From: a virus
Length of the DNA stretch: 64,000 nt
Strand: one strand, 5' to 3'
Virus record (IMG/VR): IMGVR_UViG_2868238732_000001
Coordinates: 48,913-112,912 of that record
This document shows, piece after piece, positions 1 to 44,033 of the stretch. Below the pieces are notes generated by a model. The model was not told the origin of the DNA and searched no databases. It worked only from the letters and a program-made list of their open reading frames with translations. Every line of letters starts with the position of its first letter. The first letter of the stretch is position 1. The position numbers were made by a program, and so were the translations under genes.

Positions 1-460
1 AATCTCTATTGTGCATTTTTGTAAGTAGACATAGAATAATCCATCCAGTAGGGGAGAGGTGTCTATAATAATCTAAGTATATTGATTGAGGTATTTTTTC
101 AAATCCTCCCTTGAGATTATAGTACAGAGTTAAGTCAATTGTTAATCTATCTTTTTTAACAATAGTAGATAAATCTTTGCTGCATGTTAGTAAGTTGCTC
201 TGTTGAAGTTTTGGTAGATATTTTTTTACTGTAAGTTTACTTATTGAAAGTGTAGATATAATATCTTGAAGATCTATTGTAGTTTTGTGTTCTCCTCTTG
301 ATTTATAAACTAAGTAGGTGAGAATTGAATATCCAATAGTTCCTATAGAATGTATTAGTGAAGTTGTTGGGTCTTTGTTATTTCCAAACAGACCATTTTT
401 CATTTGGATAAAATTCTTACTAATTATTGGAATGGATGAAGCAGGTGAATCATTAAACAT
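1..460 (-). CDS. 5' part of a gene truncated by the window edge; possible winged-helix replication initiator
   Basis: RBS GAAAGGAG then ATG at 460, with the frame open to position 1 (MFNDSPASSIPIISKNFIQMKNGLFGNNK...GGFEKIPQSIYLDYYRHLSPTGWIILCLLTKMHNRD). It lies next to the large non-coding region. The function is inferred. Confidence 0.5.
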   Translation of the reverse strand, partial: MFNDSPASSIPIISKNFIQMKNGLFGNNKDPTTSLIHSIGTIGYSILTYLVYKSRGEHKTTIDLQDIISTLSISKLTVKKYLPKLQQSNLLTCSKDLSTIVKKDRLTIDLTLYYNLKGGFEKIPQSIYLDYYRHLSPTGWIILCLLTKMHNRD

Positions 461-1669
461 TACTTTCTCCTTTCTGAAAATAAAAATAATTTAAAGTTGA
501 TTTTTACAAAAACATCTCCTTGCGTAATGTTATTGTTTAATTGTTATATTTATAGTATATATAATTCTTACTCAAATGACAACCTTTTTATTCAATTTCT
601 AAATAAATTTATTGATAATAGGAATTGCTTAATTTTTAGAGGTACTGTTATAGGCAGTAGATATTAATAATTTTCAATGTTTAATAACCCCTCCCATGTG
701 GACATTGTTTTGATTGTCTGTAGTAACCAGAGAGGGCGTTTAGGGCTAAGGATTAATATTTGCTAGTGTGAAAATTACAGTTGCTTGTAGGAACTATTAG
801 ACAAGGAGAAATATAATATAGTGTTTTAGGTGTTTTTGAGATTGTATGAGTATTGCAGAGTATTAGGTTAGATTGGATGAAAAGTGATAATAAGTGTATG
901 AGAATGATTGAATATAGATAAGATCAGTTGATAGTTATTTGTTAAGCTTATAGAAATAGTGTAGCTTAATTTTATAGCTGAGTAGGGGATAGTATAGAGG
1001 AAAAGTTTTCAGATAGATTAGTACCCCGGGGAGTATGTTTTTGATAGTGTAATAGAGTCATAGAGATGTTGTTTGGTGTTTTATGTGTAATTAGTGAGGA
1101 ATAGAGTAAAGTGGTTCACGACCGTTACGGGACGATGTGAAAATATTACGGGAAGTGAAACCGGCTAAAGTGAGTTTTTAGGTAAAATATGAGGTAAAAT
1201 AGAAATGTCCCGTGTGAAGTGTTGATTTGTGTAGGGTTGCCCGTGATTATTTTTAAGGAGGAAAGTCGATTTTTTGACTGAGTGCTGGAGTGAAACAGGG
1301 GGCCAAATTCCGAGGAGGCTATGAAAAGGTTGAAACGTAATATACGCCCCATGCTGCAATCCTTGTAATTTAATCAGCCAATAGTCTCATTTGTCAGGTT
1401 TTTGTGTGTTTTAGTGATATTTTGAAGGTACTGCAAGTCGTTGATACGTCTATATTTGAAGGTTATTGAATAAAAACATGCTATTAAATGTATATTTAGT
1501 TGTATGTTTACAGGAAATAGGGTATATTTGTATCATATAGTTATCATAACTAGGTGTAGATTTATTTTTGATGTTTTGAAGTGGATATATTCAGTTTACT
1601 AGTGTATTAGTTTAATAGTACACTAGCGAACTATAAAAGACTGTTTTTACAGATTTGAACTACCTAAAT

Positions 1670-1713
1670 AAACACGAACAATAAACTAATTTAAATAAAT
1701 AACGTTCGTGTTT
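1670..1713. repeat. Inverted repeat AAACACGAAC-N24-GTTCGTGTTT
   Basis: Read directly from the sequence: 10-bp arms with a 24-bp spacer. Confidence 0.9.
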
Positions 1714-1806
1714 TACATTTTCCATAAATTACACTCCTTTGTAAACAAAATAATACTACACAGGTTTACAATATAATAATCAGGAACACCATGTTACTAA
1801 TAATAA

Positions 1807-1848
1807 AACACGAACAATGACAAGTAATACACTATTAATGTTCGTGTT
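1807..1848. repeat. Second copy, AACACGAAC-N24-GTTCGTGTT
   Basis: Same arms and same 24-bp spacing as 1670-1713, with a different spacer sequence. Confidence 0.9.
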
Positions 1849-2628
1849 ATCAAATGCAGTAACAACTATATAATCATTCGACAAACAAATAATCTCAATA
1901 TCTCACATAACCATTATAAACATACATAATCAAATCTATTACACTCTCAAAACTCATTTAAACGCTCTATAAACCACTTTACAATTAAACAGTACTGTTA
2001 TACCTAATTTCTCCTAACGTTCCATTCTACTTTATTCGACAAAACATACTAACTATAATACACCCAACATGTATTTTATATCCTTAGTATCTTTTATATA
2101 CTATGAAATTGATCCTACATACCTATAACAACTATAAATATAACAAACACCCAACAATAACTAATAACCCAATATAATATATTAACCTGTTATTTACCTT
2201 GATTCTATTCCTATTAATGGACTATATTTATAGCTATTACTTAGCTAACACTATTATATAATGTAACAAAATAGCATAACCATATCTATTAGCATACTGG
2301 AGTAAACAGGACTACACACAATGACTAATATATAACTACTATTATAATATCTACACTAATAAATCCTAATATCTAAAATATCACACCATCTCACGTTCAT
2401 TCTAACGCATTGTAACCATGTAACCCTAATACTATTACCTAACAAACATAACATGGCTCTCTATTGCTTCATTTTAGCCATAATAACCCTTAACCCTGTT
2501 ACGCTAACTAACTAATAAACAATAACATTAACAATGAAACAATAATGAAATACATAGGAAATAGTAGCAAATCAAAGTATTAACACTTTAATCTATTCTA
2601 ACAACCTTATACAACCTTAAATAACATA

Positions 2629-2657
2629 TTGACAATAAAACAATACTGTAGTATTAT
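2629..2657 (+). promoter_or_regulatory. sigmaA-type promoter containing the recurrent ACAAT-AAACAAT motif
   Basis: TTGACA-17bp-TATTAT. Confidence 0.6.
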
Positions 2658-3461
2658 TAATTTATCGGCAAGGGACACACACTTGATACACTACATTAAA
2701 TACTTGCTTAACCTAGTAGTTAGGGACTAACTACACAAATTGTACATTGACAATTGAATAAATCTTTTTAATGATAGGCGATATAGTAGGTTGGAGCACT
2801 GAAAACAAATACTATATGTCGCATACCTTGAAGCCATTATGTGCAAAATAGGGAACAAATTAAAAAGTATAATGAGCAACAAATAACATTATAAATGGAC
2901 GATACCATTTAAAAAACAGTAATAGTTACTGTCCAATTTAATATAACAGGTAACTAAAAACAGTTTAAAAATCTGTAGTAATTCAATTATCATAATTGGA
3001 TGTATTAAAATACTCTTGACTTACCTTTATTGATAGCTAGAGATATTTTAGTATTAGACTAAAATTTAAAACTAAACAAATAAATGCTTTAAAACATAAA
3101 TGACAAACATAAAAAAATCACACTCCATACTATCATAAAGTGGAGATGTATTACAACGACTTAAACAATTAAACAGTACCATAACAATAAAAACTAATAG
3201 CATTAAAAAAATAATAACTGTATTCGTACACTTATTAAAAACAATGCAATAGCAATATAAAACCATTGCAAATAGATAAAGAAACACTAGAATCTTATAT
3301 TTGTGAAATGCTCGCAGAATAGCAAATTAAGTATAAAATTTACTGTTATTTTTATAAAATATTTGTAACTGGTTTTATATAATTGTTTAATAACTTATGT
3401 AAATTAGTTAACATAATAGTTTGCATACGTTATTAAATAATTTAAAAAGGTGGTTATAAAA

Positions 3462-3641
3462 ATGAAGAGTTTTGATGAATTAGTGAAAAAAGGGTTTAAA
3501 AATGGTTTTTTAACAAGTAAAGAAGTTAGCGAAATTGATTTTAATAACGATAAAAACGTAAATGATTATTTTGAGGCATTGGACGAATTAATAAATAAAG
3601 GCATACAAATTAATTTTTCTAATGGCGAAATAATGCGATAG
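3462..3641 (+). CDS. Stand-alone sigma70 region 1.1-like small protein
   Basis: LVKKGFKNGFLTSKEV...D...LDELINKGIQI matches the RpoD region 1.1 pattern (LIxKGKxxGYLTYxEI...LxDxGIxV). RBS AAGGTGG. Confidence 0.7.
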   Translation: MKSFDELVKKGFKNGFLTSKEVSEIDFNNDKNVNDYFEALDELINKGIQINFSNGEIMR

Positions 3642-4200: not shown

Positions 4201-4260
4201 ATTAAATGTTTTAACTTGCATATAACAAATACATAATAATATTATATGCAATGTAAAGCA
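4201..4260. repeat. Intergenic hairpin repeat, copy 1 (TTGCATATAA-N16-TTATATGCAA)
   Basis: Perfect 10-bp inverted repeat flanked by AAATGTTTTA and TGTAAAG, as in the copies at 5340 and 6146. Confidence 0.85.
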
Positions 4261-4296
4261 ATTAATTGCTAAAATTTAAAAGGTTGGTGCTTTACC

Positions 4297-4527
4297 ATGA
4301 TTAACATTTACTCAAAAACTATTACAATTGCAAGAATTAAAGACGTTGACTATATACACTATAATAATGAACTTGTTTCATTCAATGACAATGAAAAAAA
4401 ATGCTTTTATATTGAAACTAAAGACATGAAAAAAAACTCAGTTATAGATTATATCAAAGACACTTACAACTATAAATATAATAACTACACTATTGAAGAA
4501 TGTTATTGCATAACAAACTTGTTATAA
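4297..4527 (+). CDS. Hypothetical protein
   Basis: ORF with AAGGTTGGTG RBS. Confidence 0.75.
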   Translation: MINIYSKTITIARIKDVDYIHYNNELVSFNDNEKKCFYIETKDMKKNSVIDYIKDTYNYKYNNYTIEECYCITNLL

Positions 4528-5155: not shown

Positions 5156-5329
5156 ATGTATTATAAATCAGTAATAATCACTAACCAGTTAGGAATTTAT
5201 TATAACAACACTGAAGAAATGTTAATACCTAAAGTTATAGGATGTATTAAAAGAGGTTTTAATCAAGCTTTGCTCCATATTAAATTACTACCTTTGGGTG
5301 GACGTTACCGTGGAGATGTTAGGGTTTAA
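5156..5329 (+). CDS. Small hypothetical protein (57 aa, not in the ORF track)
   Basis: AGAGGTG RBS followed by ATG; MYYKSVIITNQLG...GGRYRGDVRV. Confidence 0.65.
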   Translation: MYYKSVIITNQLGIYYNNTEEMLIPKVIGCIKRGFNQALLHIKLLPLGGRYRGDVRV

Positions 5330-5339
5330 ATGTTTTAGT

Positions 5340-5373
5340 TTGCATACTACAAATACATAATAATAGTATGCAA
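5340..5373. repeat. Intergenic hairpin repeat, copy 2 (TTGCATACTA-N14-TAGTATGCAA)
   Basis: Perfect 10-bp inverted repeat with compensatory changes relative to copy 1. Confidence 0.85.
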
Positions 5374-5423
5374 TGTAAAGTATTTAATATAAATACTAAA
5401 ATTAAAAAGGTAGGTTTTTAATA

Positions 5424-6125
5424 ATGAATAAAGAATTAAAAGTATTATATTTTGAAGGTGCAGGATGTGAAAATACATGGAGAGGTGAAATATCGAATTG
5501 TAGAATTAGAACGGCTTTCACAAATAATGAGGGTAAAAAGATTTACCTTGAAATTTGTGGAATGGGTAAAACACAGGATGACCTTAAAAAATATCATAGA
5601 TATGGAGGTTATGAAGTAGGTGAAGCAATCGGATTTATTGATTCTTGTCATTATATAACAAATGATAATAAAATTGATGACTGCAACAAATCACGTTTAG
5701 AATGTGAAAGAAACAAAAATATTTCATATTCATACAATGGTATTTTAAAGTTTGTAAATGAAAATTGTAATTGTTCTTTTGATAATATAGAAGTTTTAGG
5801 ATGGTTAGCTGGGTATAGAGTATTTGCAGACGAAACAAAAGAAACTTCTAACACTTATAAAGCTTATAATTACGGGGATGAATTTCAATATAATATTACA
5901 TTAGAAAACACTAGAAAAGAAATTCAAAAACATTTTTATGACTTAGAAAAATCAGAAGGAAAACAATATCCAAACTTTTCTTTATGGGTAGACGATAATA
6001 ACATTAACTTATTACATTTATTAAGACATTTTAATGGATATAATAAACATTGGTCAATAAAAACAGATATAGAAAATTGGAAAGACAGTATACAAGAAAC
6101 TAAATTAAATGAATATGGATGTTAG
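5424..6125 (+). CDS. Hypothetical protein (233 aa)
   Basis: Long ORF with RBS; no family recognised. Confidence 0.85.
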   Translation: MNKELKVLYFEGAGCENTWRGEISNCRIRTAFTNNEGKKIYLEICGMGKTQDDLKKYHRYGGYEVGEAIGFIDSCHYITNDNKIDDCNKSRLECERNKNISYSYNGILKFVNENCNCSFDNIEVLGWLAGYRVFADETKETSNTYKAYNYGDEFQYNITLENTRKEIQKHFYDLEKSEGKQYPNFSLWVDDNNINLLHLLRHFNGYNKHWSIKTDIENWKDSIQETKLNEYGC

Positions 6126-6145
6126 TTTAATTTAAATGTTTTAAC

Positions 6146-6183
6146 TAGCACATTAACAATTAAACAATAATATTAGTGTGCTA
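6146..6183. repeat. Intergenic hairpin repeat, copy 3 (TAGCACATTAA-N16-TTAGTGTGCTA)
   Basis: 11-bp stem with one G.T pair. The loop holds CAATTAAACAATAATA. Confidence 0.8.
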
Positions 6184-6232
6184 TGTAAAGCAATATTAAA
6201 TTGCTAATTATAAAAAGGGATGTGCTGTAATA

Positions 6233-11246: not shown

Positions 11247-11437
11247 AAATTCGACAAGTAAACAATAATCATGCAGAAAATAATGGTAGCTGATATGAAG
11301 CTGCAGAGTAGTTTATAATCTTTACTACTAATTAAAGAAAGATGCTCAAATTTTCCCCACCTTGAGCTAAATACATTTTTGATGTGTTTAGCTGAGGGGT
11401 AATTGACCTCAAAATAAAAACTTAGGGGGATAAAGAA

Positions 11438-11617
11438 ATGAGCACAAAAGGAGCTAGAACACCAGGGGTAAAGGATTGCACACTAAACATTATTATAAGT
11501 GGACTTATGTTTCATAAGGAGGCAATAAAGAGAGAACAGGATGCAGAGAAAAGAGAATTTCATAAAAAAAGACTTAACGAGTTAAAGCTTGAATTAGAAA
11601 ATCATAAAGCAGCCTAG
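11438..11617 (+). CDS. Small basic helical protein (59 aa) upstream of the MazF-TPR gene
   Basis: AGGGGGA RBS followed by ATG; MSTKGARTPGVKDCTLNIIISGLMFHKEAIKREQDAEKREFHKKRLNELKLELENHKAA. Confidence 0.7.
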   Translation: MSTKGARTPGVKDCTLNIIISGLMFHKEAIKREQDAEKREFHKKRLNELKLELENHKAA

Positions 11618-11702
11618 AAAATCAAAGTAATTTAGAAAAAATATAAACAGAGTGGCAATGCTTGCTACTCTAACAAAACAATTTTAAGGTGGGGTAAATA
11701 AA

Positions 11703-12641
11703 GTGGAAAAAGTTATAGTTAGAAGGTCTGATATTTTTGAGGTTCAATTAAAAGGTGAAGGGAATCTCCTTCATGGAAAACATCCGGTTCTAGTTTTAAG
11801 TTGCCAAGTGTCAAATAAATTTAGTGACTTGATAAATGTAGTTCCATTAACTTCCACCACTAATAAAGACAACCCATCAAACGTATTAATAGGAACAGAA
11901 TGTGGATTAAAATGGGAATCCGCGATACTTACTAACCAAGTACAAACAATTTCAAAAAGTAATATTTTATTCAAAATAGGATTTGTAAACCTACAAAAAA
12001 TGCAGGAGGTTGAAAGAGTGTTAATGAATCAACTAGGAATTAAGAATAATTGGGGAGACTTGAAACTATATCAGATTTACGAGAAGAATAGAATGGAAAT
12101 CAGAATGGCCAAGTGTCAAGAAGATTACGAATTGTTGAGACAGTTATCAGAAAAATATTTAAAAAACTTATATGAAATGGGCCGCGTAATACAGGGTACA
12201 GAAATACATGCAGAACTAGAGTGGGCAAATTTTCATCTAGCACTAGCATTAAAGAAAAATGGTCAAATTTATGAAGCTTATGATGTAGCTAAAAAATCGT
12301 TAACTTTTAGTACAACAATAAATAGTGAGTATATTTATACCTGCTGGATGGTTGGAAGCTTGTGCATAGAGTTGGGTGATGATTTTGTGTTAGAAGGATG
12401 CGAGATGTTTGAAAAGTGCATTACATTTTATGATCAGATTAAAGAGGAAAGATATAAAATATTATCTCAGTTCAATAAAGCAAAAATACTAAAGAGGGTT
12501 CCTGAGATGCAAGCATGTATTAAAAGTTATAAAGATACTAGATTTAAACCGATGCTTTGTAGTTTTTCAGATATGGAAAAAAGTGAAGTCATCTTAGAAC
12601 TTCAAAAAGAATTAGACGACATCAAAAAATTAGTAGCCTAA
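11703..12641 (+). CDS. PemK/MazF-like domain fused to a TPR (RRNPP-like peptide receptor) domain
   Basis: Residues ~5-113 follow the PemK pattern (RSDIFEVQL...HPVLVLS...N.FS..INVVPLTS...S.IL.NQVQTISK...KIG.V...M..VE..L...LG). The C-terminal ~190 aa are amphipathic TPR-like helices (ANFHLALALKKNGQIYEAYDVAKKSL; CWMVGSLCIELG...GCEMFEKCI). Confidence 0.8.
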   Translation: MEKVIVRRSDIFEVQLKGEGNLLHGKHPVLVLSCQVSNKFSDLINVVPLTSTTNKDNPSNVLIGTECGLKWESAILTNQVQTISKSNILFKIGFVNLQKMQEVERVLMNQLGIKNNWGDLKLYQIYEKNRMEIRMAKCQEDYELLRQLSEKYLKNLYEMGRVIQGTEIHAELEWANFHLALALKKNGQIYEAYDVAKKSLTFSTTINSEYIYTCWMVGSLCIELGDDFVLEGCEMFEKCITFYDQIKEERYKILSQFNKAKILKRVPEMQACIKSYKDTRFKPMLCSFSDMEKSEVILELQKELDDIKKLVA

Positions 12642-12700
12642 TAAATAGCATGGGAGCGTTAAACTCTCCCATAGAATATTTATTAGGAGGTCTTCAAAAG

Positions 12701-12844
12701 ATGAAGATTACAAAAAGAATTGCAGCAGTAGGGTTAGGCATAGTTATAATGGGAGGTTTATTTGCTAGTAGCACTAAACTAATAACACAAAAAATAAACG
12801 TGCCGACAATAAATGTCGCTACAATCGACCCACCAACTCATTAA
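12701..12844 (+). CDS. Secreted signalling propeptide (47 aa; Phr/AimP/Qsp-like), predicted mature end ...TIDPPTH
   Basis: AGGAGG RBS. Basic N-terminus MKITKR, hydrophobic core IAAVGLGIVIMGGLFA, and a short C-terminus ending in DPPTH. It lies immediately downstream of a TPR protein. Confidence 0.8.
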   Translation: MKITKRIAAVGLGIVIMGGLFASSTKLITQKINVPTINVATIDPPTH

Positions 12845-12868
12845 AGAAGGGGATAATCCCCTTCTTTT
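12843..12868 (+). terminator. Intrinsic terminator closing the receptor-peptide unit
   Basis: AAAGAAGGGG-ATAAT-CCCCTTCTTTT. Confidence 0.9.
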
Positions 12869-12898
12869 CTAAAAAAGAATCATAACTATAAAATAAAT

Positions 12899-12948
12899 TT
12901 GACAAATAAATACTTCCAGTAGTATAATAATTTTAGAACATATGTTCG
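12899..12948 (+). promoter_or_regulatory. sigmaA promoter with a LexA (SOS/Cheo) box at the transcription start
   Basis: TTGACA(12899)-18bp-TATAAT(12923), then GAAC-ATAT-GTTC at 12936-12947. Confidence 0.75.
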
Positions 12949-12976
12949 TAAAATATATGGAAGAGGTGTTAAGTTT

Positions 12977-13198
12977 ATGACAAAAGTTTACATGTTAAGC
13001 TACGAAACAATGTGCTTAGATTTATTAAATAATAATGTTAAAGAAGAAGATATTGAAGAATTTGTAGAAGAAATTTTAGGAGAACTAAGATTAATCAACA
13101 TAATTGAGAATGATGATAGTTATGTTGTTGGAAATTTAACAGCATTTTTATTAAAAGAAAAATTCGGAATAGAATGTACTGAGATACAATTAATATAA
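12977..13198 (+). CDS. Small acidic protein, probably SOS-induced
   Basis: GAGGTG RBS; first gene after the LexA-boxed promoter. Confidence 0.75.
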   Translation: MTKVYMLSYETMCLDLLNNNVKEEDIEEFVEEILGELRLINIIENDDSYVVGNLTAFLLKEKFGIECTEIQLI

Positions 13199-13207
13199 AA
13201 GGAAGGA

Positions 13208-13549
13208 ATGGTAATAATGATATTAATAGAAGAAATGAATAAAATAGAAATAGAGAATTTATGTTTCAAACATGGCTTCTCTTGGGATAAGATTGGAGAA
13301 TATATTAGAATACAAAGTAAGAGAGACACATGGTATATAAAGGATATAAACCACGATGGAAGACTAATAGAGCTAGAGCATCAAAACAAATATAGAGATG
13401 CAAGGTTTCATTCACAAGGCAAGCATGAGAATTTAAAGAATATCTTTAAATCTATAGAAAGCCATGACCATAGAGAGGAATTAGGGCACAGAAATAATAA
13501 ACTGACTAGAATAACTAATACATTCAAACTACTTGGCTTATACAATTAA
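13208..13549 (+). CDS. Hypothetical protein
   Basis: ORF with AAGGAAGG RBS. Confidence 0.75.
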   Translation: MVIMILIEEMNKIEIENLCFKHGFSWDKIGEYIRIQSKRDTWYIKDINHDGRLIELEHQNKYRDARFHSQGKHENLKNIFKSIESHDHREELGHRNNKLTRITNTFKLLGLYN

Positions 13550-13641
13550 AGGATAATATGTCGAAAGAATAATTAAACAATAATGTATAAGAAAATTAAA
13601 AGAAGTATATAATAATAATATAATCTTAGGAGGAAGTATCT

Positions 13642-13806
13642 ATGGAGAACCATCCAATAATGTTTTTTTTCTTGATAGTAATTTGGGGTCTATATGCTGT
13701 ATATTACGCAATAAAGACAGTAGTTGTATTGTTAATAGGACTTTACAAATGGTCAGTTAAAAAGATAAAAGAAAGGAAGGTAAATAGTAATGTTGTTGAT
13801 AGATGA
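13642..13806 (+). CDS. Small membrane protein (54 aa, not in the ORF track)
   Basis: AGGAGG RBS; MENHPIMFFFLIVIWGLYAVYYAIKTVVVLLIGLYKWSVKKIKERKVNSNVVDR. Confidence 0.65.
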   Translation: MENHPIMFFFLIVIWGLYAVYYAIKTVVVLLIGLYKWSVKKIKERKVNSNVVDR

Positions 13807-14686
13807 ATATAAGGACTATTTACATGGAGTAGAAGGAAAGTCTGCTGGGACAGTCGAACAGTATTACAGTAGTGTGCATTTGTTTATGCAGTATATGAAA
13901 AAGAGTGAATTCTCTATAACTAGGCAAAGTATAATTAAAGTTAAATTATCTAACATATATGGCTTCATAAATAGTCTAACTGAAAGCAACTCAAATGGGA
14001 CTCGAAGAAACAAAATATCAGCATTGAAATCATTCTTTGAATACTGCAAGGAGATTGAATTGTTAAAGCATAACATTATTGTTGACTTAAAAAAACAACC
14101 TAAGAAAAACAAAAGGATTGCAAAATACTTTACATTAGAAGAATGCAAGAGACTAGTTAACTCAGTAGGTGGAAGGAACAAAGAAAGAGATAAGATGATG
14201 ATAATATTATTTCTTAATACTGGAATAAGATTAGCTGAATTAGTCAGCCTGAACATTTCATGTATCGATAATGAAAACTTGAATATTGTAGGGAAAGGAA
14301 ATAAAGAACGTGTAATACATTTAGATTCATCAATTATAGACTTATTGAAAGAATATATTAAGACGACAAGAGCTGATTCAGGAATAGAAGTAGATGCATT
14401 GTTCTTATCTGAACGTTTGACTAGGGTATCAAGCGATTCAGTACAATCGGCGGTTAATAAAGCAATAGCCAATGCAGGATTGAATACAGAAGGCAAGAAC
14501 GACGTGTCCGTTCATGTACTTAGACATACTTTTGCTACACTTCAATTTCAGAATGGTGTCAGTATAAGAACTCTTCAAAAAATACTTGGGCATGAAGATA
14601 TTTCAACGACTCAAATCTATGTTCAAGTTGCAGATAATCAGATGATTGAAGCAGCAAAAACCAATCCGCTAAAATCTATATATTAA
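13790..14686 (+). CDS. Tyrosine recombinase, XerC/XerD-like, with intact catalytic residues
   Basis: TGIRLAEL (R), GKGNKER (K), HVLRHTFAT (HxxR), LGHED (H), TTQIY (Y). Confidence 0.92.
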   Translation: MLLIDEYKDYLHGVEGKSAGTVEQYYSSVHLFMQYMKKSEFSITRQSIIKVKLSNIYGFINSLTESNSNGTRRNKISALKSFFEYCKEIELLKHNIIVDLKKQPKKNKRIAKYFTLEECKRLVNSVGGRNKERDKMMIILFLNTGIRLAELVSLNISCIDNENLNIVGKGNKERVIHLDSSIIDLLKEYIKTTRADSGIEVDALFLSERLTRVSSDSVQSAVNKAIANAGLNTEGKNDVSVHVLRHTFATLQFQNGVSIRTLQKILGHEDISTTQIYVQVADNQMIEAAKTNPLKSIY

Positions 14687-18143: not shown

Positions 18144-18830
18144 ATGACATCAAAAATTGAGATAAGAAATAGTGAAATTATTAGAAAAAGTGTTGCAGGG
18201 AAAACACATGAAGAATTAGCCATAGAATATAGTACATCTTTATCTAATATTAATAATATAGTTGGACAATATATTGAATTCAAAAATTATTGTAACGAAA
18301 TGGAGAATTATATATCTAAGAATGAAATTAATAAAGACGTAAAAATGTATAATTTGCTTAAACTATTAAAATTTCATACACGTAGCATCAATGCATTGAT
18401 AGATAAAAATATTATGAGCATTGAAGACCTTATCTCATTGGAAAGGGATGAAATTTGTTGTATAAGACGTATTGGAAAAACAACCGTACAACATATTAAT
18501 GAATGTATCAATAACTATAATAATAATGGTAATAATTCGTTAAAACCATTCACAAATGATGAAATAATTTTGAATAATTTCAATAAAAATGTGAATCTTT
18601 TTATATTAAGAGGAAAATTAACTGAAAATAATAGAATCACTTGCCCTTGTGCTAATAATCAAATACTAATACAAGCTATAAAAGGTGATAGAGAGTATAT
18701 TCGGAAATTAATTGATTTAGTGGATAATAACCAGTTCACATTTAGTTTTCTGAAAAAGGAAGTAAATAAAGAATTCGATAGATTGGAAAAAAGAAATGAA
18801 CAGTTAGTAGAAATGTTAAATAAAATGTGA
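18144..18830 (+). CDS. HTH plus RNA polymerase alpha-CTD-like domain protein
   Basis: N-terminal RNSEII...GKTHEELAIEYSTSLSNI helix-turn-helix. LKFHTRSINALIDKNIMSIEDLISLERDEICCIRRIGKTTVQHI matches the alpha-CTD pattern LxLSVRSxNCL...I.TVxDL....xxL.xI.NxGxKSxxEI. Confidence 0.65.
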   Translation: MTSKIEIRNSEIIRKSVAGKTHEELAIEYSTSLSNINNIVGQYIEFKNYCNEMENYISKNEINKDVKMYNLLKLLKFHTRSINALIDKNIMSIEDLISLERDEICCIRRIGKTTVQHINECINNYNNNGNNSLKPFTNDEIILNNFNKNVNLFILRGKLTENNRITCPCANNQILIQAIKGDREYIRKLIDLVDNNQFTFSFLKKEVNKEFDRLEKRNEQLVEMLNKM

Positions 18831-40835: not shown

Positions 40836-42077
40836 ATGGCTATAAAGAAAAATGTAATATTAAGAAACCTATCAGATTACGTTCATTACGTTAGAGGGGT
40901 AAAAAAAGTTGGTAAGACTACACTGTTCAGAGATTTGGTACTACAGGAGTATGGAGATGAATCTAAAGGTCTACTGTGTTCATTCGGAGACGAAGATGGA
41001 TTTAAGTCACTAGATAGACTTCAATATGAAGAGTTCACTTACTGGGATATCACAGAAGCAGATTATGTACAAAAGATAATGGATCAATTTGTAGAAAAGT
41101 TAGAGGAAACTCAAATGGATAGCATGACTACTGATGAAATTTATGTGAAGGCAGAAAAACAAACAAATCAATTCATAGAAAAATTCGGAAAACAAAGAGG
41201 ATTTGTACAATTGGTTGATGATCTAGTATTGAATAATGACGAAATTGGGATTGAATTTATAGCTTATGATACAATCGACAAAATGATAGAAGTAGCAACA
41301 GTAGAAGTAATTAGATTGAGCATGATGGAAACAGGAAAGCCATGTAAGTCAATTAATGCAGCGTGGGGTGGCTACGGCGAAGGGAAAAAGAGACTTGCTA
41401 AACTTATACAAGACCAAACAACAAGACTTAAACAAATAGGGTTATGCCCAATGGTATTAGGCCATACAAAATACAAAGATAAAACTGATGAAATGTCAGG
41501 AGCTGAATATTCTCAATTAACAACTTCTTTAAATTCAGATCTTGATGCCATATTTGGAGACACCGCTCAGGTTGTGTGTACCATTTCAATAGATAAAATA
41601 ATAGTAGAAGGTAAAATCACTGGAACTCAAAGAATGTTACATTTTAGAGATGACGGAATCGTTGATTGTGGTTCAAGATTTACAGGTATGCCGGACAGTA
41701 TGGAATTAAGTTCAGCGAATTATATTGAGGCCTTTGATATAGGCGTAAAAAATTCATACTTGACTGCTCCACCAGTGACTCAACCAAAAGTAGAAGCTAA
41801 GACAGAGACAAAAGCTTCAAAAGTCAAAGCTGAAGTAAAAGAAGACGCTCCAGTCGATAATTCATCATGGGGAAGTACAGAAGCAGCTGAGCCTACTGAA
41901 CCGGAATACGATTTAAAGACATTGATAAAGATGATATTGTCTACAATTAAACAAAAACAAGCACAAAAAGTTGCAGTTGTAGATATTATGAAAGTATTAA
42001 CTAATAATGGAGTTACAGATCCTAACAAAATAACAGATGTTGAAGTAGCAAAGAAAATATTGCAAGAATATAAATAA
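40836..42077 (+). CDS. AAA (AAA_24/Sak4-like) ATPase, SPbeta YorG-like
   Basis: Walker A GVKKVGKTT, Walker B IAYDTID, WGGYGEG, VLGH. Confidence 0.75.
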   Translation: MAIKKNVILRNLSDYVHYVRGVKKVGKTTLFRDLVLQEYGDESKGLLCSFGDEDGFKSLDRLQYEEFTYWDITEADYVQKIMDQFVEKLEETQMDSMTTDEIYVKAEKQTNQFIEKFGKQRGFVQLVDDLVLNNDEIGIEFIAYDTIDKMIEVATVEVIRLSMMETGKPCKSINAAWGGYGEGKKRLAKLIQDQTTRLKQIGLCPMVLGHTKYKDKTDEMSGAEYSQLTTSLNSDLDAIFGDTAQVVCTISIDKIIVEGKITGTQRMLHFRDDGIVDCGSRFTGMPDSMELSSANYIEAFDIGVKNSYLTAPPVTQPKVEAKTETKASKVKAEVKEDAPVDNSSWGSTEAAEPTEPEYDLKTLIKMILSTIKQKQAQKVAVVDIMKVLTNNGVTDPNKITDVEVAKKILQEYK

Positions 42078-42085
42078 TATAAAAT

Positions 42086-42115
42086 AAGTCCTCTAGTTAA
42101 ATCTGGAGGACTTTT
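42086..42115 (+). terminator. Intrinsic terminator
   Basis: AAGTCCTCTAG...CTGGAGGACTTTT. Confidence 0.75.
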
Positions 42116-42135
42116 CTCAAAAGGAGATGTAAATT

Positions 42136-42765
42136 ATGAATAGGAATAAGGAGATGATGGTTAAATTATGCCTCCTCTGTGGGATATGGAGTGCTGTAAT
42201 AGGTATAAATTCTAATCTAAATAATAAAGATTTTAATGCAGATAAGTTAAGATATGAGGTCAAGGAAGTAAAGATAATCAAAATTGCTAACTTTGAGAAA
42301 TTCATGAAGATTGTGGATATTAGTAAGAAGAAAATTGAAGCAGATAAGATTGTTAAGGCTAAGAAGTTAATTGAGGATAATAAAATCAAAATGATAAAGG
42401 CCAAGAAGTTAAAAGAAAATAAGGTTACTGCCAGTAGAGGTGGAGAAGTAGAATACAATATGGTTTTTACATTAACATTCTACACAAATCTAACAAGTGA
42501 GAATAGTAGTGCTGGAGGAATTAATTGTCGTGGAATTAAGCTTTATGACGGAATGGTAGCAAATAATAAATTGCCTTATGGAACTAAGATTAAGCTTGAA
42601 GGATGGGGTACTGTAGAGGTCTTAGATGTGGGTGGCAGTAACTTTGACGTATCTCATAGGCTAGATGTTTATGTGCCTAGAGAGGGTGGAGAGAGCGACA
42701 ATGAATACTTCAAAAGAGTTCAGAGAATGGGTAAGGTTAAGGTTCAAGGAAAGATTGTAAAGTGA
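42136..42765 (+). CDS. Secreted 3D-domain cell-wall-binding/lytic protein
   Basis: Signal-like N-terminus; ASRGG; TFY...; LPYGTKIKLEGWG...VLDVGG......RLDVY. Confidence 0.85.
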   Translation: MNRNKEMMVKLCLLCGIWSAVIGINSNLNNKDFNADKLRYEVKEVKIIKIANFEKFMKIVDISKKKIEADKIVKAKKLIEDNKIKMIKAKKLKENKVTASRGGEVEYNMVFTLTFYTNLTSENSSAGGINCRGIKLYDGMVANNKLPYGTKIKLEGWGTVEVLDVGGSNFDVSHRLDVYVPREGGESDNEYFKRVQRMGKVKVQGKIVK

Positions 42766-42770
42766 AAAAA

Positions 42771-42792
42771 ACAGGAGGGAATCTCTCCTGTT
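42771..42792. terminator. Terminator between convergent genes
   Basis: ACAGGAG...CTCCTGTT. Confidence 0.7.
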
Positions 42793-43072
42793 AAATATTA
42801 TCCATATTGAGAACTTTTAGAGCAGAAGCTTTGAGTTTATTATCATCTATAATCTCATTTGGCTTATCTAAAATAAGAACACCCCTTGTTTGAAGATACT
42901 CTTCAATAATTGCAAACATAACTTCCTTATCTATTTTAGAAGAATCATCATTAATGTCTTCTCTAATAAGATCCACTAGATATTTAGTCTTATTGGGTTG
43001 CTTATTCAAATATTCCCAGACATCAGGATATTGTTTAAAATCAAATGTTTCTCTTGTGGTGTTATTTCCCAT
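42791..43072 (-). CDS. ParR-like centromere-binding adaptor
   Basis: Small RHH-like ORF (TFDFKQYPDVWEYLNKQPNKTKYLVDLIRED) overlapping the 3' end of ParM. Confidence 0.75.
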   Translation of the reverse strand: MGNNTTRETFDFKQYPDVWEYLNKQPNKTKYLVDLIREDINDDSSKIDKEVMFAIIEEYLQTRGVLILDKPNEIIDDNKLKASALKVLNMDNI

Positions 43073-44033
43073 TTACATCGTCCCCATATATTAAATTACC
43101 AACAACGAGTAAGCCTTTAGAACCATCATTTATGCAGTCATCAGAAATAGCAATCTGAGGGAATGTGGATTTTAATTGAGAAGAATAATCCAAACTGCTT
43201 CCTCCGGTTGCAAACAAATCAAGTGACTCAACATTCCAATTGTTTGACCTCATAGCCTTTTTAATCTTGTTCATATGCTCGTTAATGGTTGATTTAATTA
43301 TATCACAGGAAGTAGTCATGAGAACACCATTAACTTTTATACCATTTTTAATAATACTAGGGAGTTCATAATCTTTGATATTTAGATTAAACTTTGTATC
43401 CAATTTCTTTTTAATCTCATTCTCAAGGATTATACTTCCTAAGTTTTCAGTAAACCCAGTTCCAGGAACGATGTTCATGTCAGACAAAACACAGCAATTA
43501 ATTGTAAGTCCTCCGAAGTCTAATATTCCCCTCATTTGATTTTGGAACAACTTAGGTTGATTGTAAGCATGAGAAACACCTTGAGGAAATGTTATAGATT
43601 TGACTATATTAAACTTCTTAGGCTCTTCATTAAGCTTCGTCTCGAATACTCCAGTACCCTTTAAGTATGAAGCAAAATGATCTTTATTCTGGTTATAAAT
43701 AGAAAGAGGATAGGAGCCTACAAGATAAAAGTCTGTACCTACAAAGTCAGAGAGGATAGATAGCCCTGCGTAAGTGATTATCTTATACATTTCATCCGCG
43801 GTCTTATCATAATCTATACTGGAAAGTTCTGCACCGGCGCCTACAATATAATCAGTATTATTGTAGTGCAATAAATAAGTATTATCTTTGTTCAAAATAT
43901 CATTAGATTTTTCATACTTGCTACGTAAATATATAGACTTATCTTTTGTAGATATTTTAGTTCCGTAGTACCCATTATCTACACCTACTATTACTTTTGG
44001 TTTGTTAGCTTTAAATATTTCTTTGATTTGCAT
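43062..44033 (-). CDS. parM: ParM/StbA actin-like plasmid segregation ATPase
   Basis: VGVDNGYYGTK (phosphate 1), PQG, GILDFGGLT (phosphate 2), FATGGSS (adenosine). ATG at 44033 after a GGGGGGTG RBS. Confidence 0.88.
   Translation of the reverse strand: MQIKEIFKANKPKVIVGVDNGYYGTKISTKDKSIYLRSKYEKSNDILNKDNTYLLHYNNTDYIVGAGAELSSIDYDKTADEMYKIITYAGLSILSDFVGTDFYLVGSYPLSIYNQNKDHFASYLKGTGVFETKLNEEPKKFNIVKSITFPQGVSHAYNQPKLFQNQMRGILDFGGLTINCCVLSDMNIVPGTGFTENLGSIILENEIKKKLDTKFNLNIKDYELPSIIKNGIKVNGVLMTTSCDIIKSTINEHMNKIKKAMRSNNWNVESLDLFATGGSSLDYSSQLKSTFPQIAISDDCINDGSKGLLVVGNLIYGDDVNGK

Follow-up and report, generated by a model that had tools for sequence, protein, structure and literature searches.

Why should a phage encode a protein that folds like region 1.1 of a sigma factor and has no other part of it? 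This question is raised by P0001, a protein of 59 residues from a provirus of 126,022 bp (assembly GCA_011065955) in Clostridium sp. FP2, which was isolated from spoiled venison (PMC7193938). We analysed a stretch of 64,000 nucleotides of this provirus, referred to below as the window. The original prediction was that P0001, as a mimic of sigma70 region 1.1, could be an early host-takeover factor that binds core RNA polymerase (RNAP) or decoys a sigmaA-interacting factor. We find that P0001 represents, as a free-standing phage protein, a small domain with the sigma1.1 fold, and that the other known home of this domain is the extreme C-terminus of accessory proteins of phosphorothioate (PT)-type BREX-4 systems in clostridia and fusobacteria. 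P0001 is a real gene that carries a variant of a known domain, and it comes with a testable anti-defence hypothesis.

The gene and its prophage surroundings

At the level of layout the FP2 provirus is SPbeta-like: its RNAP is of the YonO-like kind, its early arm consists of small ORFs, and a recombinase module is present. Its leftward arm contains helicases, structural-looking genes and an 895-aa candidate for a YonO-like single-chain RNA polymerase, and its rightward arm holds small early ORFs and replication genes; an integrase-family gene is found at 13790. The polymerase candidate lies outside the window, on the minus strand at 41260-43947 of the whole prophage (sequence G000), which corresponds to 11261-13948 of locus L012. 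It matches the RdRP Pfam family with an E-value of 4.5e-8, and its DxDxD motif at residue 555 reads DTDSD, as opposed to DxDGD.

Table 1. Positions in the window of P0001, its parts and the putative signals upstream of it.
Feature	Position	Strand	Basis or remark
P0001, gene for a stand-alone sigma1.1-fold protein, 59 aa	3462..3641	+	ORF, Pfam, model
Domain of 52 residues, common to the stand-alone homologs and the C-termini of BREX-4 accessory proteins	3462..3617	+	
Tail of 7 residues unique to P0001, and stop codon	3618..3641	+	low pLDDT
Shine-Dalgarno-like AAGGTGG	3447..3453	+	8 nt 5' of the P0001 ATG
Imperfect inverted repeat of 26 bp, AT-rich	3381..3442	.	immediately 5' of the P0001 RBS
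SigmaA-type promoter TTGACA-17-TATTAT	2629..2657	+	11/12, top score upstream of P0001
Gene-free divergent region, about 3 kb	461..3461	.	between the leftward (helicase/late) and rightward early arms

The reading frame of P0001 runs uninterrupted through 59 codons from ATG to TAG (stop at 3639-3641), and its GC and GC3 of 0.26 and 0.23 are as in the neighbouring genes. According to a public gene caller it is the first gene past a gap of about 3 kb (window 460-3462), and there is no other RBS-led ORF between 2600 and 3461. The first position after a non-coding region, as originally noted, is therefore correct for this prophage, but it is not a conserved feature. In C. tagluense the homologous early region, which has genes of 233 and 125 aa and a recombinase in common with that of FP2, carries its copy in the middle of the array, and P0001 is missing from the closest syntenic phage (IMG/VR, 122 kb), where several of the early genes recur along with parts of the non-coding region.

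The -35/spacer part of the promoter upstream of P0001 contains, at 2632-2647, a copy of a 16-bp motif, ACAATTAAACAATAAT, that is found throughout the prophage. The window holds 28 copies (529-58352) where 0.64 are expected, all but one on the plus strand, and several of them occupy the -35/spacer of clear sigmaA promoters. The motif is likely the operator of a lysogeny repressor. The early/replication region appears to rely on sigmaA promoters, several of which have clear -35 and -10 boxes, and we infer from this arrangement that P0001 is probably an early, repressor-controlled gene.

Other features of the prophage are recorded here in their own right. About 800 nt free of ORFs (window 2658-3461) separate the strong promoter at 2629 from P0001 and could hold a leader or non-coding RNA. 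Two islands of the non-coding region, at 1439-1525 and 3096-3159, are 79-84% conserved in the related phage L003 and are candidate cis-elements, for example a packaging or replication site. Three intergenic modules of about 100 bp (window 4202-4304, 5326-5431 and 6132-6229; about 79% identical) carry short inverted repeats and precede early genes. A PemK/MazF-domain protein with a long C-terminal extension is encoded at 11703-12641 on the plus strand, and is also present in L003. Genes for alphaCTD-like proteins (PF03118) occur in both related prophages on the arm that also bears the sigma1.1-like gene (window 18144-18830, plus strand, and L017 7521-7910; E-values of 1.5e-5 and 2.7e-4). GATC is depleted across the whole prophage (observed/expected 0.42), which suggests selection by a GATC-cutting system; the Ssp motif CCA is not depleted in the prophage (1.07), and may not be the motif of BREX-4.

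Resemblance to sigma region 1.1

The top Pfam match of P0001 is the predicted family, Sigma70_r1_1 (PF03979), which covers residues 3-50 with an E-value of 0.0023, but the score of 18.3 bits falls under the curated cut-off of 22.5 bits. The same profile weakly matches four of ten members of the domain family, the best E-value being 0.00026. By its ESM Atlas features, P0001 falls with r1.1 clusters at 0.90, with 184-194 features in common; because some of the short clusters of this kind may be RpoD fragments, they were not counted as a stand-alone gene family.

The AF2 model of P0001 built from a 10-sequence alignment (pLDDT 87.2, pTM 0.66) has helices at residues 4-14, 19-23 and 36-45 and strands at residues 16-18 and 49-51; G11, D35 and I50 of the domain are invariant in the family. 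Among 48,161 chains searched with this model, region 1.1 of B. subtilis sigmaA (5mww) ranks first and is the sole chain with a Z-score of at least 5, at a modest 5.2 with an r.m.s.d. of 4.1 and 54 aligned residues. The Z-score to residues 7-58 of E. coli sigma70 (6psr) is 5.4, and the r.m.s.d. to sigma1.1 structures spans 3.5-4.1. Foldseek ranks SigA first and second, with a TMq of 0.61-0.67 (0.67 to 5mww) at non-significant E-values (1.3 for 5mww), and hhalign aligns the domain family with clostridial SigA 1.1 over 43 columns with a probability of 92% and an E-value of 6.7e-7. The assignment of the sigma1.1 fold is based on these several modest signals, which are concordant and jointly beyond chance. 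The expected structural match to region 1.1 was thus found, with sigma1.1 in first place in three fold searches.

No other sigma domain is present in P0001, the ORFs downstream of it have no sigma Pfam match for regions 1.2, 2, 3 or 4, and the 126-kb prophage contains no second match to PF03979. The description of a 59-aa ORF with the region 1.1 pattern and nothing else of a sigma factor is therefore confirmed by the intact frame, the RBS, the top Pfam match and the fold. Four fold searches with a single-sequence AF2 model (pLDDT 75, pTM 0.44) were all uninformative, and a family profile search of PDB sequences found no solved relatives. Designed PPR proteins that came up as PDB sequence matches of P0001 were discarded as a repeat-summing artefact.

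Kinship with a domain of BREX-4 accessory proteins

If P0001 were a true sigma1.1 mimic, the free domain would dampen or re-time host transcription by binding either host RNAP, in its downstream DNA channel, or a factor that interacts with sigma1.1, and BREX-4 accessory proteins would use the domain as an RNAP tether or a phage-captured bait. The retained fold is in keeping with this, and P0001 has the highest SigA-likeness of its family (17.2 bits on an HMM of 18 clostridial SigA 1.1 domains), but on an HMM of BREX-borne domains only, built with no stand-alone sequence, it scores 67.1 bits; the best SigA score on this BREX-only profile is 11.5 bits. Ungapped identity is likewise 31-46% to BREX domains versus 24-30% to clostridial SigA 1.1. 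The N-terminal half of P0001 is about equally SigA-like and family-like and keeps L..KG.KNG.LT.KE. Further on, the family motif ID[FY]..K.V.DY[FY]EA, present in P0001, and a short helix replace the long acidic helix 2 and the SPEQIEK of SigA, and the SigA-invariant Y19 and M23 give way to family-specific residues. Segment 19-46 (helix2-loop-helix3) nearly equals SigA in acidity, with 8 acidic residues compared to 8-10, but the net charge of the protein is -3 against a SigA mean of -7.6.

An exhaustive phmmer search with P0001 against 1.84 billion representatives returned two stand-alone (54-56%) and four fused homologs (34-48%), with no SigA among the genuine matches; a seventh match, P0002 (1372 aa), was spurious, a repeat-driven artefact. 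In the tree SigA is set apart from the domain family with 100/100 support, and at the base of the family the branching of the three stand-alone copies is not resolved. Neither monophyly of the stand-alone copies (p-AU 0.42) nor a grouping of phage copies with SigA (p-AU 0.47) was rejected, and the tree did not fix the direction of capture, from BREX to phage or from phage to BREX.

Further points count for and against a sigma1.1 mimic. One BREX fusion contains sigma region 4, and these phages encode alphaCTD-like proteins; native sigma1.1, on the other hand, works tethered to sigma, and the closest syntenic phage does without P0001. The prophage has its own YonO-like RNAP, and since the SPbeta counterpart transcribes late genes (PMC5467207), host RNAP could be dispensable late. 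An early block of RNAP, however, would harm the phage, because the arm that carries P0001 has 27 co-oriented copies of the 16-bp motif, often in the spacers of sigmaA promoters. We consider this reading doubtful. Of the host-takeover mimic originally proposed, what stands is an intact, stand-alone protein with the sigma1.1 fold in the early region; that it copies host SigA 1.1 directly and is aimed at RNAP is not supported, in view of the closer BREX kin, the family-specific motif, the lower overall acidity and an early region that appears to depend on sigmaA.

Three stand-alone copies are known, all in psychrotolerant clostridia: that of FP2, a 52-aa homolog in C. estertheticum and a 50-aa homolog in C. 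tagluense. Could they be decaying remnants without function, taken by a phage from the 3' end of sigA or of a BREX accessory gene? In keeping with a remnant are the C-terminal place of the domain in the fusions, the sporadic distribution, a deletion of 3 residues in P0004 and the presence of a truly decayed, stop-containing copy in the BREX locus of C. tagluense. A decaying fragment is nevertheless argued against by the shared start, since all three independent copies begin at domain residue 1 with a good RBS, and by dN/dS values of 0.37, 0.20 and 0.10 at dS 0.9-1.6, which are rough at 52 codons. The stand-alone copies are under purifying selection. Moreover, the base composition of P0001 is that of its phage neighbours, and no sigA or BREX sequence lies beside it. 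We judge a remnant very improbable; in particular, the concern that P0001 is a decayed piece of a sigma gene is answered by its intactness, the selection on it and its score of 67 bits for BREX versus 17 for SigA.

The neighbours of the C. estertheticum copy are small ORFs, genes for PAPS reductases and a methylase gene. The copy is probably part of a mobile element, the phage nature of which is suggested by gene content only. Two PAPS-reductase-family genes and a C5 methylase gene flank this copy (L016 1836-2879, 3929-5503 and 7340-8260), and are possibly a DNA-modification cluster of the element. Such a neighbourhood would also fit a role as a general acidic DNA mimic in the cleft of a restriction or BREX enzyme, as in the case of Ocr, or a phage-internal role apart from the BREX kin. 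Sigma1.1 is itself a DNA mimic and every family member is net acidic (-2 to -8), but -3 over 52 residues is weak for the Ocr type, and hydrophobic or motif-like positions make up most of the conserved ones. BREX and RNAP are both inhibited by Ocr (PMC7261183, PMC7064336); a role of this kind leaves the presence of the domain in BREX proteins unexplained, and we hold it to be unlikely.

The family is rare, with two to three occurrences in 397 Clostridiaceae genomes (two of them clear), and in a sample of 401 Clostridia it was found only in the centre genome of the search. Word-based homolog searches with P0001 gave no matches. Pattern scans of IMG/VR, metagenomes and GTDB added no stand-alone copy except that of C. 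tagluense, those of GenBank phages gave only chance PhoH matches, and those of plasmids none; because pattern scans are insensitive, the number of stand-alone copies is a floor.

A profile search raised the number of longer homologs to 29 in all, the named ones from Clostridium, Cetobacterium and Fusobacterium, and in every one the domain lies at the C-terminus or at most two residues from it. All nine examined contexts of the fused domain are BREX type 4 operons. At the domain-bearing loci PADLOC identifies BrxP, SspA-, SspB- and SspC-like proteins, PglZ and BrxL, and it has no models for the domain or the accessory proteins. The carrier genes are located directly 5' of BrxP-DUF4007-BrxC in eight of the nine loci, normally past a cysteine desulfurase, and after BrxL in the ninth; five loci have an adjacent pair of genes that both end in the domain. 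One type of carrier, a coiled-coil protein of 144-548 aa in its complete forms, is hypervariable, and the other, of 155-218 aa, has an N-terminus that weakly resembles HARE-HTH/DUF3860 winged helices. A 1072-aa carrier (L026 6654-9872) combines sigma region 4 and winged-helix-like parts with a C-terminal sigma1.1-like domain.

The organisation of these operons shows further peculiarities. In the BREX-4 variant loci L018, L022, L024, L026-L030 and L038 the interval from the desulfurase to BrxP holds one or two accessory genes that are uncharacterised, and two BrxC-like and two DUF4007 genes are present in L026-L030 and L038. The front gene is HNH in C. tagluense and WYL in L026. The C. tagluense locus also has a decayed second domain-bearing accessory gene with a stop (G010:C20:87742-87828; L034). 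The type-4 desulfurase, together with a zinc-finger neighbour, is described in a recent survey of BREX (PMC12839542); a term search of that survey, of the supplements of one paper and of PMC12914056 brought up neither region 1.1 nor these accessory proteins.

In C. tagluense a prophage stand-alone copy and a complete BREX-4 system with the fused domain are found in one genome. This co-occurrence is suggestive, although it is a single case and C. tagluense was the centre of those searches. Its BREX-4 locus keeps the winged-helix-type domain gene intact, and of the coiled-coil-type gene no more than a remnant is left; the stand-alone copies are more similar to the domain of the coiled-coil type than to that of the winged-helix type.

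A possible decoy against BREX-4

Could the bare domain interfere with the defence system whose proteins carry it? P0001 is a phage gene made solely of a domain that is found in a defence-system protein. On the strength of homology and context, we hypothesize that it may be a domain-only decoy against BREX-4, comparable to phage CARD-only proteins, and assign this reading a probability of roughly 40%. In BREX-4 the domain would be a protein-interaction adaptor, since two unrelated, variable proteins of a single defence operon both end in this small conserved domain. Known effector-associated domains set the pattern for such interaction adaptors. The putative adaptor terminates two adjacent, otherwise unrelated proteins, one coiled-coil and one winged-helix/HARE-like, mostly between the cysteine desulfurase and BrxP. 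Anti-defence genes usually sit in variable early regions, and in the phage the domain alone would be made early, with the repressor-controlled sigmaA promoter at 2629 as its probable source. The free domain would then compete for the partner surface of the adaptor, with the sibling domain, BrxP and the desulfurase as candidate partners, and through this competition the BREX core could lose its link to an accessory sensor or DNA-reader.

Several observations count against a decoy. Known stand-alone copies number only three, the N-terminal half of P0001 is about as close to SigA as to the family, a grouping of the phage domains with SigA stays compatible with the tree, and the stand-alone copies are nearer to the coiled-coil-type domain while C. 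tagluense retains the winged-helix type intact. More tentatively, and judging from sequence, we propose a wider form of the decoy hypothesis, in which the domain would be sigma1.1-derived and repurposed to act, as adaptor or bait, in a BREX-4 accessory module that is itself undescribed, with the bare domain of SPbeta-like Clostridium phages as an anti-BREX-4 decoy.

A literature search of incomplete coverage found no description of a phage sigma1.1 homolog, of this domain family or of an inhibitor of BREX type 4, and none of accessory genes between the BREX-4 desulfurase and BrxP was found in the literature searched. Apart from sigma2 and sigma4, sigma domains that stand alone are reported to be rare (bioRxiv 10.64898/2026.10.08.757525). 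As far as these searches show, a decoy would be the first inhibitor to be described for type-4 BREX, and it would offer a handle on why defence operons collect domains like those of RNAP subunits. A 52-residue domain common to a phage early gene and a defence operon allows a cheap two-way test: a block of BREX-4 by P0001 would reveal what the accessory module does and add a new anti-defence protein, and if P0001 binds RNAP, it would be, to our knowledge, the first phage sigma1.1 mimic, and would suggest that an RNAP-like bait is present in BREX-4. The rarity of the family limits the breadth of the impact.

The closest precedent for a decoy is pCARD, a CARD-only protein of a phage, for which disruption of defence by the adaptor domain alone was demonstrated experimentally (bioRxiv 10.1101/2023.05.28.542683). 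The same logic, expression of an adaptor domain by itself to disrupt a defence protein, is proposed for pCARD, viral pyrin-only proteins and P0001; pCARD differs from P0001 in fold and target system, and the decoy role of P0001 is deduced from homology and context only. T7 Gp2, Ocr and SPO1 Gp44/Gp33 are likewise small early phage proteins, of which Gp2 acts through sigma1.1 and Ocr and Gp44 are DNA mimics (PMC3778932, PMC7064336, PMC13401047). In contrast to P0001, none of them is a sigma1.1 homolog, and no match in sequence or fold between them and P0001 was seen.

With region 1.1 of sigma factors (PF03979; 5mww, 6psr/6pss), P0001 shares the fold of three helices plus short strands, the 36-residue spacing of two glycine motifs, the N-terminal pattern and the net acidity. 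It differs in being free-standing, without regions 1.2-4, in its shortened helix 2 with a conserved ID[FY]..K.V.D loop instead, and in being less acidic. As for BREX type 4 (BrxP, DUF4007, BrxC, PglZ, BrxL and cysteine desulfurase), the domain family ends its accessory proteins, whereas the phage protein is encoded outside any BREX operon and has neither the N-terminal coiled-coil nor the winged-helix part.
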